Assembly (NCBI RefSeq): GCF_002854065.1
Contig: NZ_CP024147.1
Length of the DNA: 64,000 nucleotides
Direction: 5' to 3' (one strand)
From: Escherichia coli
GTDB taxonomy: Bacteria > Pseudomonadota > Gammaproteobacteria > Enterobacterales > Enterobacteriaceae
The stretch's first letter is position 1. Each line of letters begins with the position of its first letter. Position numbers and translations under genes: made by a program. Below the pieces are notes generated by a model. The model did no database searches, was not told the origin of the DNA, and saw only the letters and a list, made by a program, of their open reading frames with translations. Shown one piece after another: positions 2,670 to 55,335 of this stretch.

Positions 2670-4130
2670 ATGACTACTATTGTTGACAGCAATCTGCCGG
2701 TTGCCCGCCCGTCATGGGATCATTCTCGTCTGGAATCACGCATTGTGCATCTCGGTTGCGGGGCGTTTCACCGTGCGCACCAGGCGCTGTACACCCATCA
2801 TCTGCTGGAAAGCACCGACAGCGACTGGGGTATCTGCGAAGTTAACCTGATGCCAGGCAACGACCGCGTGCTGATCGAAAACCTGAAAAAACAGCAACTG
2901 CTGTACACCGTGGCGGAAAAAGGCGCGGAAAGCACCGAGCTGAAAATTATCGGTTCGATGAAAGAAGCGCTGCACCCGGAAATCGACGGCTGCGAAGGTA
3001 TTCTCAACGCGATGGCGCGTCCGCAAACGGCGATTGTCTCTCTGACGGTCACGGAAAAAGGCTACTGCGCTGATGCGGCAAGCGGTCAACTGGATCTCAA
3101 TAACCCGCTGATCAAGCACGATCTGGAAAACCCGACTGCGCCGAAGTCCGCGATTGGTTACATCGTCGAAGCCTTGCGTCTGCGTCGTGAAAAAGGGCTG
3201 AAAGCATTTACGGTGATGTCCTGCGATAACGTGCGTGAAAACGGTCATGTGGCGAAGGTCGCGGTACTGGGGCTGGCTCAGGCGCGTGACCCGCAGCTAG
3301 CGGCATGGATTGAAGAGAACGTCACCTTCCCGTGCACCATGGTTGACCGCATCGTTCCGGCGGCGACGCCAGAAACCTTACAGGAAATTGCTGACCAGCT
3401 GGGCGTTTACGACCCGTGCGCCATTGCCTGCGAACCGTTCCGTCAGTGGGTGATTGAAGATAATTTCGTTAATGGTCGCCCGGACTGGGATAAAGTGGGC
3501 GCACAGTTCGTTGCAGACGTTGTGCCGTTCGAAATGATGAAGCTGCGTATGCTGAACGGTAGCCACTCTTTCCTGGCGTACCTCGGTTACCTCGGCGGCT
3601 ATGAAACTATTGCCGACACCATGACTAACCCGGATTATCGCAAAGCGGCCTTTGCCCTGATGATGCAGGAACAAGCGCCAACGCTGTCGATGCCGGAAGG
3701 TACGGACCTGAACGCCTATGCGACGCTGCTGATCGAGCGTTTCAGCAACCCGTCTCTGCGTCACCGTACCTGGCAGATTGCGATGGACGGCAGCCAGAAG
3801 TTACCGCAGCGTCTGCTGGACCCGGTGCGTCTGCACCTGCAAAACGGCGGCAGCTGGCGTCACCTGGCGCTGGGCGTGGCTGGCTGGATGCGTTACACCC
3901 AGGGCGTGGATGAGCAGGGTAATGCCATTGACGTGGTCGACCCGATGCTGGCCGAGTTCCAGAAGATTAACGCGCAGTATCAGGGCGCAGACCGCGTGAA
4001 AGCGCTGCTAGGCCTGAGCGGTATTTTTGCCGATGATCTGCCGCAGAATGCCGACTTTGTTGGCGCGGTGACGGCGGCATATCAGCAGCTGTGCGAACGC
4101 GGTGCGCGCGAGTGTGTGGCTGCGCTGTAA
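2670..4130 (+). CDS. uxuB: D-mannonate oxidoreductase (fructuronate reductase)
   Basis: Track ORF, 486 aa, MTTIVDSNLPVARPSWDHSRL...; ATG verified at 2670. Confidence 0.95.
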   Translation: MTTIVDSNLPVARPSWDHSRLESRIVHLGCGAFHRAHQALYTHHLLESTDSDWGICEVNLMPGNDRVLIENLKKQQLLYTVAEKGAESTELKIIGSMKEALHPEIDGCEGILNAMARPQTAIVSLTVTEKGYCADAASGQLDLNNPLIKHDLENPTAPKSAIGYIVEALRLRREKGLKAFTVMSCDNVRENGHVAKVAVLGLAQARDPQLAAWIEENVTFPCTMVDRIVPAATPETLQEIADQLGVYDPCAIACEPFRQWVIEDNFVNGRPDWDKVGAQFVADVVPFEMMKLRMLNGSHSFLAYLGYLGGYETIADTMTNPDYRKAAFALMMQEQAPTLSMPEGTDLNAYATLLIERFSNPSLRHRTWQIAMDGSQKLPQRLLDPVRLHLQNGGSWRHLALGVAGWMRYTQGVDEQGNAIDVVDPMLAEFQKINAQYQGADRVKALLGLSGIFADDLPQNADFVGAVTAAYQQLCERGARECVAAL

Positions 4131-9768: not shown

Positions 9769-10448
9769 GCTTGCGCTCCTTGCGTTGGGTTGCGACGTTC
9801 TTCGAAGTTAAGCCAGACGCGCAAAATGTTGGCTCCGACAAATTTAAACACCAGGATGACTGCTAAAGGTACGATTACGGACGTGCCCAGAAAGGCAAAC
9901 ACCGCGACGCCGGAAGAGAAGTAGTTGGTGATAATGGCGCTACCGCTGGTTTGATATGCGGCGAAAATCACTTTATCGCGTTCGGTAATTTCACCTTCCT
10001 GCGCCAGCTCTTTGGTCATACCTGCGGCGGCATCGGTGTTTTGCAGGTTAGCGATCAGCGCCAGCGAGCAGATCCCTGGAATGCCCAACAACGGTTTTAG
10101 CACTGGCGTCATTAACTGCTGCGCGGCGCGTGATCCGCCAAGACCATCGGTAATTGAAATAATCCCCAGAGAGAGAATGACTGACGGTGCCAGCTCCAGC
10201 GCAAAGAGAAAGCCATCTTTAGCCCCCGCGCCACCCGCGCCGCGAAACGAGGTGGTGGCTCCGTTCGCACCAGGCAGTTGCCCAAACGATCCGTTCAGAA
10301 CGGAAAAATCAAAAACGCGCCACCAACTGTCTGTCCCGGAAAAAACACCGGAAAAAAAGATTATGGTGAGAAAAAAAGCCAGATACCCTTTAATGCCCAC
10401 TTTTTCTGTCGCCAGCTCCCCGGCTACAGCATCCCCTTGTTGTGTCAT
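9765..10448 (-). CDS. yjiH: Inner-membrane protein YjiH
   Basis: Track ORF 9765..10577 trimmed to ATG 10448 (MTQQGDAVAGE...), 227 aa; 4-nt overlap with the yjiG start. Confidence 0.8.
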   Translation of the reverse strand: MTQQGDAVAGELATEKVGIKGYLAFFLTIIFFSGVFSGTDSWWRVFDFSVLNGSFGQLPGANGATTSFRGAGGAGAKDGFLFALELAPSVILSLGIISITDGLGGSRAAQQLMTPVLKPLLGIPGICSLALIANLQNTDAAAGMTKELAQEGEITERDKVIFAAYQTSGSAIITNYFSSGVAVFAFLGTSVIVPLAVILVFKFVGANILRVWLNFEERRNPTQGAQA

Positions 10449-53893: not shown

Positions 53894-53926
53894 GAAGCCG
53901 GAGTGGGAGACTGCTCCGGCTTTTTA
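53894..53926 (+). terminator. Intrinsic terminator of the deo operon
   Basis: agccggag-tgggagact-gctccggct hairpin followed by ttttt. Confidence 0.7.
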
Positions 53927-53928
53927 GT

Positions 53929-54026
53929 ATCTATTCATCAATAGCAACTGATTTATAGATTTACTATTATTTTTCATATGGATAGAAAATAAAATCTATT
54001 CAAGTATCTATTCACGAATCTATTCA
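53929..54026. repeat. Four copies of ATCTATTCA, three phased at exactly 12 bp, in an AT-rich block
   Basis: Copies at about 53929, 53994, 54006 and 54018 (atctattcaagt / atctattcacga / atctattcattt). Confidence 0.6.
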
Positions 54027-54287
54027 TTTATGTTCAGCCGTCATCCAGGAAGGGCATATCAGCAACTCTGGTGGACAACCATAAATTTCTGCCATTTTGC
54101 TTTTGATGTTTGAGCTAAACCGTTCCGTCTTTTCGATCTATTTTAGAGAATTAATCGAGATACCTAACATTTTACTTACTTCAGCAAGCGATAATTTATG
54201 CCTGATACGCACGGCGGCTAGCCAGGAAATACGCTGGCTTAACATTAAATTGATAATCTCCCGCTCCTGGTTTTCCAGATCGATCAT
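54024..54287 (-). pseudogene. Relic XRE-family HTH reading frame interrupted by an in-frame amber codon, downstream of lplA
   Basis: ATG at 54287 with AAGGAAGGG Shine-Dalgarno: MIDLENQEREIINLMLSQRISWLAAVRIRHKLSLAEVSKMLGISINSLK-TAG(54138..54140)-IEKTERFSSNIKSKMAEIYGCPPELLICPSWMTAEHK*; reading through the TAG gives a complete XRE-type HTH plus helix, with no kinase or other domain following. Confidence 0.5.
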
Positions 54288-54318
54288 ATTCCCTTCCTTT
54301 GGTATTTTAATCAGCGAG

Positions 54319-55335
54319 TTACCTTACCGCCCCCGCTATCCACGTCGACAACTCCCGTAGCTCTTTTTCCTGGTCCGGGAAGTCAACCAACAGCGCTTCG
54401 CACTCTTGTTGCAGCATATCCGCGCGGTACAGGCAGCCTTGCAGTCGCCCGGCGAGGGCTTCCAGCGGCGCGGGGTTGAGGCTGTCGGTAAACACCTGGG
54501 CGCGGGTGATATGGCCTTTTTCAACGTCGAAATGCAGTTCCACGCCGCCCCAGGTAAAGCGTTCATCCAGCAGATGCGAGAATGCCGGAGCCTGACCGAA
54601 GTTCCATTCCCAGCTACTCTGGCGGGCAAAGGTTTCGGCGAAGTTCGGCAAGTCTGGCGTTTTGTCCGGGGAGATGATTTCCGCTTCTACACGCTCGCCA
54701 TAATGAGCGAAAAAGGCCTCGGTTATGGCCTCGCAAACCTGCTCATGGGTGATCCCCGGCAACAGCTCGGTGAGGTTGGTCACGCGGGAACGTACCGACG
54801 TAATGCCTTTCGCCGCCAGTTTCTTTTTATCCGGATTGAGATAGTTTGCCAGGCGACTAAGGTCGGCATTGAGCAGCAAGGTGCCGTGGTGGAAGCCACG
54901 ATCTTTGGTTTCGCGATAGGCCGATCCTGAGACTTTGCGGTCGCCTTCGGCGGTTTTCACCACCAGATCGTTACGCCCGGACGCTTCGGCGCTGACGCCA
55001 AGCGCGTTCAGCGCATTGAGCACAATCGACGTGGAGATGGTTTTATCGTACTCCGGCTTGCCAGCCATAAAGGTAAAGCAGGTATTGCCGAGATCGTGGA
55101 ACACCGCGCCGCCACCGCTACTGCGCCGTGCCAGGCGGACGTTATCTTCTTCCATCCGCCGGGTATTACACTCTTTCCACGGGTTCTGCGCGCGACCAAT
55201 CACTACCGTGTCGGCATTGCGCCAGAGAAACAGAACGCGCTGCGTGGCGGGCATCTGGCGAAAAATACACTCCTCCACCGCCAGGTTAAACCACGGGTCG
55301 TAAGAGTCAGAGATGAGCAGGCGTAATGTGGACAT
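54319..55335 (-). CDS. lplA: Lipoate-protein ligase A
   Basis: Track ORF, 338 aa, [28 protein letters not shown]... Confidence 0.95.

Follow-up and report, generated by a model that had tools for sequence, protein, structure and literature searches.

An orphaned direct-repeat array in the deoD-lplA gap of Escherichia coli as a probable autoregulatory operator of the toxin gene hipH

The window analysed here, i.e. the whole stretch of 64,000 nucleotides of E. coli DNA, contains the genes deoA, deoB and deoD on the plus strand, followed by the deoD terminator, a group of short repeats, a helix-turn-helix (HTH) reading frame on the minus strand, lplA, likewise on the minus strand, and then ytjB and serB. 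The repeated element is the 9-mer ATCTATTCA, of which exact copies are present on the plus strand at positions 53929-53937, 53994-54002, 54006-54014 and 54018-54026. At 53929 the window reads agtATCTATTCAtca, and 53994-54029 reads aaaATCTATTCAagtATCTATTCAcgaATCTATTCAttt, directly followed by an ATG. No further exact copy is found in the 64-kb window, for which 0.46 copies would be expected by chance, and none of 100 shuffled sequences reached four copies. The phased pair ATCTATTCA-N3-ATCTATTCA was observed twice, compared to an expectation of 0.02 for the window, and Tandem Repeats Finder reported a period of 12 with 2.8 copies and a score of 54 for the array. When one mismatch is allowed, the copies in the window are at background level (nine observed, the four exact ones included, against 11.5 expected). 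The phased array noticed in the preliminary description is thus real and non-random, and its location between the deo terminator and the 3' end of the HTH frame had been given correctly, the stop codon of this frame being located inside unit 3. The positions of all features are compiled in Table 1. The spacer between the distal box and the proximal units furthermore contains two weak inverted box-like sequences at 53949-53960 and 53979-53987.

Table 1. Features of the deoD-lplA region in the window (positions refer to the 64-kb stretch)
Feature	Position	Strand	Remarks
deoD intrinsic terminator	53895..53927	+	hairpin AAGCCGGAG...CTCCGGCTT and T-run; perfect 9-bp inverted repeat
distal ATCTATTCA box	53929..53937	+	exact copy; 65 bp start-to-start upstream of the first proximal unit
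spacer, 56 nt	53938..53993	+	putative former core promoter of hipH; conserved in length but not in sequence
proximal array, three ATCTATTCA units	53994..54026	+	12-bp period; putative HipH operator
XRE-family HTH gene, 87 codons	54024..54287	-	pseudogene here; stop codon overlaps unit 3
hipH start-codon relic	54030..54032	+	last base homologous to hipH-bearing alleles (alignments with K-12-like, SaT040 and GPEC sequences)
replacement segment, 286 bp	54033..54318		occupies the place of the hipH coding region, from ATG+1 to the lplA stop codon
lplA	54319..55335	-	lipoate-protein ligase; conserved flank on the right

The translation of the XRE-family HTH gene contains an internal stop at 54138-54140 in the window. 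For the identical strain M217, the PGAP annotation is likewise a pseudogene that contains an internal stop. It is intact in E26, O145:H28 and O157:H7 strains. The protein matches the Pfam families HTH_3 and Sigma70_r4, and its homologues, many of which are truncated, were detected in Escherichia and Shigella only. Most of the gene is bracketed by a 13-nt inverted repeat (54047-54059 and 54286-54298, AGGAAGGGCATAT and ATATTCCCTTCCT, 12 of 13 positions complementary), with one arm in the 3' part of the coding sequence and the other at the start codon and 5' end. This repeat could be due to chance or could be a trace of the arrival of the 286-bp segment. Antisense to the pseudogene, positions 54097-54193 of the plus strand gave a sub-threshold match to RF00529, a eukaryotic snoRNA (25.4 bits compared to a gathering threshold of 37, E = 0.19), which is almost certainly a chance match.

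The gap between deoD and lplA was compared by megablast with 5,426 complete E. coli genomes. The whole gap is matched in 4,057 of these genomes, which represent the XRE ('HTH') allele. In about 1,300 others the match is confined to the first 169 bases, with an identity of 82-84%, and yjjJ is the feature annotated there. This gene, now named hipH in MG1655, fills the deoD-lplA gap of K-12-like strains; its product is a Ser/Thr kinase toxin of the HipA family that has a helix-turn-helix at the N-terminus (PMC8262856). About 25% of the E. coli genomes carry hipH, and the XRE gene is present instead in about 75%. Alignments of the two alleles show that the terminator and the distal box are common to both. 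The terminator, whose hairpin itself comprises 53895-53922 with the T-run behind it, forms the left boundary of the hipH control region and is 91-98% conserved between the alleles. The following 56-nt spacer is non-homologous, with an identity of 43-46%, and an island of about 45 bp, consisting of the three phased units and the ATG, is again shared. In K-12 the array ends 3 nt before the ATG of hipH, and homology between the alleles stops directly after this ATG, to resume on the right side exactly at the lplA stop codon. The 169 bp next to deoD in the window correspond by homology to the complete deoD-hipH intergenic region of K-12-like strains, and the 286-bp segment behind it shows no similarity to hipH at either the DNA or the protein level. 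The upstream region of hipH is thus present in the window, and the gene itself is missing.

As judged by its boxes, by the triple on a 12-bp period and by the geometry of distal box and spacer, the array in the window belongs to the box arrays found upstream of hipH. The hipH gene itself does not follow immediately downstream, and this copy is orphaned; it is homologous and, in terms of its descent, functional. Since the synteny of hipH spans the Enterobacterales, the hipH allele is regarded as ancestral and the XRE allele as derived. The array in the window is almost certainly a conserved cis-element of hipH that was orphaned by gene replacement; both regulator and target are gone from the window, and the array is a relic there, not an active iteron or phage element. 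The earlier suggestion of an orphaned operator of a lost regulator thus holds insofar as hipH has been lost from the window. It does not hold for the adjacent HTH relic as the regulator, given the distribution of the XRE gene, the position of the array at its 3' end and the missing similarity of the 286-bp segment to hipH.

With a 42-nt array query, 5280 of the 5426 complete E. coli genomes gave exactly one location each, which is what a dedicated autoregulator would lead one to expect. A search of other E. coli genomes had been proposed in the preliminary description, and its outcome is neither a background frequency nor a lack of conservation. The state of the array was then compared in a spread sample of 60 E. 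coli genomes. The K-12 array was unchanged in all 14 sampled genomes with the hipH allele, and the 46 sampled genomes with the XRE allele comprised 20 with an exact array, 17 with one change, eight with two changes and one with a partial array. In the inspected XRE-allele arrays unit 1 was often mutated (to ATCCATTCA, ATACATTCA or ATCCATTCG) and one 12-bp unit was sometimes lost; units 2 and 3 were intact in every inspected hipH-less sequence. The changes in hipH-less strains fit a relaxed constraint on an orphaned operator. This argument from decay is weakened by its dependence on unit 1 and on unit deletions, and it is confounded by clonal sampling. In some strains the number of units varies by slippage, two units being present at the loci L004 and L019. 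In E. coli TB354 (NZ_AP038814; L003) hipH and its array are parted from deoD by an IS200C copy (positions 3063-3877), which has inserted behind the deoD terminator and ahead of the distal box. In E. coli SaT040 (L007, position 767 onward) hipH is annotated as a frameshifted pseudogene; its three proximal units are intact, and the distal box has one change (ATTTATTCA).

The gene order deoD-hipH-lplA/ytjB is found in E. albertii, Salmonella, Citrobacter, Kosakonia, Cedecea, Erwinia tasmaniensis and one lineage with 69% protein identity, and the upstream neighbour of hipH differs in Pantoea. The layout of the boxes was examined in nine hipH-bearing Enterobacterales lineages, Pantoea included, and one distal and three proximal boxes on a 12-bp period are present in all nine. 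MG1655 has the identical array with its units at -36, -24 and -12 from the hipH ATG. The proximal units of the other lineages start at the same distances within 2 nt, apart from Pantoea with -47, -35 and -23. The distal box starts 64-66 bp upstream of the first proximal box at every Enterobacterales hipH locus examined. The HipH proteins of the compared lineages are down to 46-49% identical to the E. coli protein. When 36 units were compared, each of the nine box positions carried 1.6-2.0 bits, against 0.05-1.0 bits in the 3-nt linkers, where 1.0 is reached only at the A or T (W) just 5' of the box. The distal box is invariant in all nine lineages, as is unit 2; unit 1, which abuts a -10-like element, is the most variable one (ATCCATTCA, GTGTATTCA, TTGTATTCA). 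The suggestion that the repeats are sites for a DNA-binding protein is supported by these results, which identify them as a conserved upstream element of hipH/yjjJ. The spacer measures 55-57 nt in 10 lineages, with sequences that are only 24-64% identical between lineages and cannot be aligned. As a separate observation, K-12 (L024) and E. albertii (L009) have retained exactly the same spacer length with only 64% identity, compared to 95% identity of their HipH proteins and about 94% of the flanks, which is an unusually fast turnover for a promoter whose length is strictly constrained.

The AlphaFold model of HipH contains a confident winged helix at residues 3-53 with pLDDT values above 90, consisting of helices at 3-8, 15-22 and 26-35 and a beta hairpin at 39-53. 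According to a fold search, the remainder of the model has the HipA kinase fold. No solved structure of HipH or of a relative of its N-domain was found in a sequence search of the PDB. The recognition helix ISQATFSRL and the wing GKARATRYAL are the best-conserved part of the N-domain. An exhaustive profile search yielded a HipH family of 1,802 members, and a helix of the SQxTxSR type is present in 82 of the 148 best distant representatives among them. Homologues with this type of helix at 35-42% identity keep ATTCA-type boxes, in two of three cases on a 12-bp period. Thus, a 35%-identical homologue from the viral-contig scan (P0232 group) has TGCATTCA, ATCTATTCA and ATCTATTCA on a 12-bp period upstream of its ATG, and a 42%-identical homologue (L114, 60% GC) has ATCCATTCA as distal box and AACCATTCA, ATTTATTCA and ATTAATTCA on a 12-bp period up to the ATG. 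At the homologue of a contig with 65% GC (L119), a distal ATCCATTCA is followed by ATCCATTCA and ATTCATTCA 11 bp apart. A subfamily with the helix CDRSTVTR has (A/T)TTATTGATGCA repeats on a 12-bp period instead, the helix VNRSTITR goes along with TTATT(T)TGATGC sites, and a homologue with the helix SIPTLHR has a palindrome. When metagenomes were scanned for the alternative motif, 63 stretches were obtained, eight of them directly upstream of hipH homologues, all with the CDRSTVTR helix.

Across these homologues the box sequence appears to track the recognition helix, and most members examined have retained the head-to-tail arrangement with its 12-bp period. This covariation is drawn from few independent subfamilies, i.e. 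one alternative motif in two helix variants and one palindrome. That the box sequence follows the recognition helix is the main argument for HipH as the probable reader of its own upstream repeats. A strongly expanded array is found in a marine metagenome (Ga0115550_1000114, L162; about 10266-10400, minus strand), where about 10 tandem 12-bp units with GTTATTGCTGCA and TTTATTGATGCA variants precede a hipH homologue with the helix CDRSTVTR.

With regard to the promoter, a -35-like element (TTGACA or TTTACA) in the middle of the spacer and a -10-like element abutting or overlapping unit 1 were recognized by eye in the relatives. Consensus scans detected no canonical plus-strand promoter in the spacer of the window, nor did they reveal a canonical sigma-70 site ahead of hipH in any of the three sequences scanned (window, K-12 and Salmonella); the placement of the promoter therefore rests on the elements seen by eye and on the frame of the Reg-Seq study (Ireland et al. 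2020, eLife, PMC7567609). In that study, the region from -115 to +45 around the yjjJ transcription start site (TSS; 4,621,716), which is a computational prediction only, was mutagenised. Two repressor-type sites were reported (PMC7567609, supplementary file 3), one at -24 to +18 that was assigned to MarA and one at +30 to +45, a single 16-bp site, with no factor assigned. On this frame (NC_000913.3) the units of the array occupy +17 to +25, +29 to +37 and +41 to +49. The site at +30 to +45 maps to TCTATTCACGAATCTA, i.e. to unit 2 and the start of unit 3, and is truncated by the edge of the library. Mutation of the units raises expression, as expected for an operator, and this site is the only experimental evidence that the units repress. 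The Reg-Seq data concern the same K-12 DNA; the study makes no mention of repeats, of a distal box, of conservation or of a link to the winged helix of HipH. The MarA site corresponds to 4,621,692-4,621,734 of MG1655 and coincides with the region in which the real -35/-10 of hipH would be expected from the other genera. Since the TSS is only predicted computationally, the 'repressor' signal at this site might partly reflect mutations that improve the promoter. Rows for yjjJ in individual conditions, which might contain RNA polymerase footprints, were not found in the Reg-Seq supplement.

Starting from the observed position, conservation and geometry of the array, the replacement of the allele and the repressor-type signal on units 2 and 3 in K-12, we infer HipH as the binding protein as well as its mode of repression. 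On the basis of these comparisons HipH probably binds to the four boxes and represses its own gene, so that the boxes would form a direct-repeat autoregulatory operator. In hipH-bearing bacteria the core promoter would be located in the 55-57-nt spacer, the three head-to-tail boxes would cover the -10/+1 region and almost all of the short leader that precedes the start codon, and the fourth box would be held at a fixed distance of about 65 bp upstream. Each box would be occupied by one HipH molecule through the recognition helix SQxTxSR and the wing. The proximal array would be filled cooperatively, HipH would probably bridge it to the distal box, and the promoter would be shut by occlusion or by a roadblock. 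Such a mechanism would be a monocistronic counterpart of the HipB-mediated autorepression of hipBA. The HTH domain is required for the toxicity of HipH and for its nucleoid localisation, and control of hipH by c-di-GMP acts at the promoter (PMC11452175).

Several points speak against this model. ChIP-exo of tagged YjjJ in K-12 yielded no binding sites at all (PMC8464067), which opposes HipH as the reader of the array; native expression of YjjJ may have been too low, and the authors assumed that YjjJ has no HTH. With a period of 12 bp, neighbouring sites are rotated by about 50 degrees relative to each other on the helix, an uncommon arrangement for proteins that bind cooperatively head to tail. 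Finally, the assignment of MarA to -24 to +18 implies other factors at the hipH promoter. A more elaborate and rather doubtful variant is that the array serves as a scaffold for head-to-tail HipH, whose occupancy would couple hipH transcription to activation or silencing of the toxin and to c-di-GMP. The scaffold would carry three proximal and one distal HipH at the fixed 65 bp, with the toxin being a kinase or the reported nuclease, and the departure of c-di-GMP-bound HipH from the array would explain the reported induction at the promoter level.

The closest comparison is with hipBA, whose operators O1-O4 (TATCC-N8-GGATA) are bound by HipB dimers in HipA2B2 and mediate negative autoregulation (PMC8262856). 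In both systems a kinase toxin gene of the HipA family would have multiple sites at its promoter, and the overlap with the promoter typical of a hipBA-type operator fits by position in the hipH-bearing relatives, where the TSS is only predicted and the scans gave no canonical promoter. However, the hipBA sites are palindromes read by dimers of a separate Cro-like antitoxin, whereas the hipH array consists of 9-bp direct repeats on a 12-bp period with a distal box at about 65 bp; an antitoxin gene is missing, and the presumed reader is a winged helix fused to the toxin. By eye, only direct repeats and no TATCC-N8-GGATA palindrome were evident in the array of the window. The hipH array thus differs in kind from the hipBA operators. 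Plasmid iterons, which the preliminary description had also considered, are 17-22 bp long, lie at replication origins beside rep genes and are bound by winged-helix Rep monomers. The likeness to the hipH array lies in direct repeats, presumably one per winged-helix monomer, that are also used for autorepression. In contrast to iterons, the hipH boxes have 9 bp and a 12-bp period, are chromosomal and syntenic and are tied to a toxin kinase gene, so that the array fails the defining features of iterons. Arrays of OmpR/PhoB-type boxes and of DnaA boxes (9-mers) are likewise directly oriented and spaced by about one helical turn, and they are filled cooperatively, as the hipH array would be, but they have periods of 10-11 bp, belong to other protein families and motifs and show no resemblance in sequence to the hipH boxes by eye.

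Several other explanations of the array were weighed against autoregulation by HipH. It is very improbable that the array is the operator of the adjacent XRE-type protein or a phage- or plasmid-like relic of the iteron kind. This reading derives some appeal from the end of the HTH frame within unit 3, from the resemblance of phased direct repeats to iterons and from the occurrence of 12-bp tandem ATCTATTCA repeats in some phage contigs. However, strains and genera with hipH in place of the XRE gene have the same array without changes, and the array extends across the Enterobacterales, while XRE homologues are confined to Escherichia and Shigella. It adjoins the 3' end of the XRE gene, and the promoter side of this gene (about 54288-54318) is about 250 bp away. 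The XRE gene as owner of the operator was thus rejected. The iteron or phage-like origin proposed earlier was discarded as well: the period is 12 and not 17-22 bp, the location is syntenic on the chromosome, and there is no rep, partition or integrase gene nearby. A scan of viral contigs gave 89 matches, of which only four had hipH homologues, and these are prophage-flagged host DNA. The remaining matches are unrelated slippage repeats with a 12-bp unit, located close to phage genes of the uvsY-like or SleB-like type, or they belong to an AT-rich minisatellite. In IMG/VR contigs (L029, L030, L032, L036, L043, L050 and others), two to four ATCTATTCA units on a 12-bp period are found in reverse orientation, 3-27 nt from the start codon of a gene for a SleB-like hydrolase or of a T4 uvsY-like gene. 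In AT-rich viruses (L046, L053, L059, L060, L090, L091, L095) the match is a perfect (TTTATCTATTCA)5-7 minisatellite. No hipH was found near either kind of viral repeat, and the phage arrays are probably independent slippage repeats. It is hardly credible that the hipH array is itself a tandem duplication without function that arose when replication slipped in AT-rich intergenic DNA. Although unit number does vary (two units in L004 and L019, about 10 in L162), the box positions are nearly invariant in contrast to the linkers, lineages with HipH proteins only 46-69% identical share the layout and the 64-66-bp offset, and there is the repressor signal from Reg-Seq.

An unlikely but more serious alternative is that the array is a genuine hipH operator bound by an unlinked host factor instead of HipH, candidates being the factor behind the c-di-GMP response, MarA/Rob/SoxS or a nucleoid protein. 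The MarA site immediately upstream of the unassigned site at +30 to +45, the action of c-di-GMP through the promoter, the negative ChIP-exo and the unchanged units 2 and 3 in hipH-less strains are all in line with such a factor. On the other hand, the box follows the class of the HipH helix across distant taxa, including GC-rich genomes and marine metagenomes, and an unlinked factor would therefore have to co-vary with hipH. Its regulon would furthermore comprise one gene, as the array is single-copy, and no GCAC-type marbox is evident by eye in the units. It is also quite improbable that the proximal units act mainly as RNA, either as an unstructured AU-rich leader devoid of a Shine-Dalgarno sequence or as a target of an sRNA or RNA-binding protein. 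The units do fill the space from the predicted -10 to the ATG, no Shine-Dalgarno sequence is visible in Escherichia, Salmonella or Erwinia, and the K-12 leader folds less well than all of 200 shuffled sequences (z = +2.85). Moreover, Reg-Seq measures RNA, and an effect on stability could mimic a repressor site. Yet the distal box, upstream of the -35 region and thus outside the transcript, is invariant at its fixed 64-66 bp, the array lies 14-50 nt from the ATG in Pantoea, L067 and L117, the repeat sequence covaries with the DNA-binding helix, and no Rfam family is matched. A structured RNA or riboswitch was rejected on the basis of the missing match to any Rfam 15 family and the unusually unstructured leader. 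Since the distal box is invariant although it is not transcribed, and since helix and box covary, we regard DNA as the primary target, with a possible contribution at the RNA level.

Overall, the analysis supplies a precise and testable candidate operator, W-ATCTATTCA, present three times on a 12-bp period and once more at about -65 bp, together with a predicted reader, the SQxTxSR winged helix. This candidate operator accounts for the Reg-Seq repressor site that had no assigned factor, which is the only prior trace of the array that we found; literature searches for the 9-mer and for yjjJ in combination with operator or direct repeats gave no description of the array, and the matches to the 9-mer were primer or shRNA coincidences. 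Autoregulation by HipH would also offer a simple possible route for the action of c-di-GMP at the hipH promoter. As a corollary of the doubtful scaffold variant, the array may still matter in the roughly 75% of E. coli genomes in which it is orphaned, for instance as a decoy or landing site for incoming HipH, and it could be an unrepressed promoter from which transcription runs antisense into this gene's XRE replacement. Strains with the XRE allele keep the operator of a toxin without the toxin itself, which is relevant when persistence phenotypes are compared across strains. In this way, the control of HipH becomes amenable to a direct experiment.
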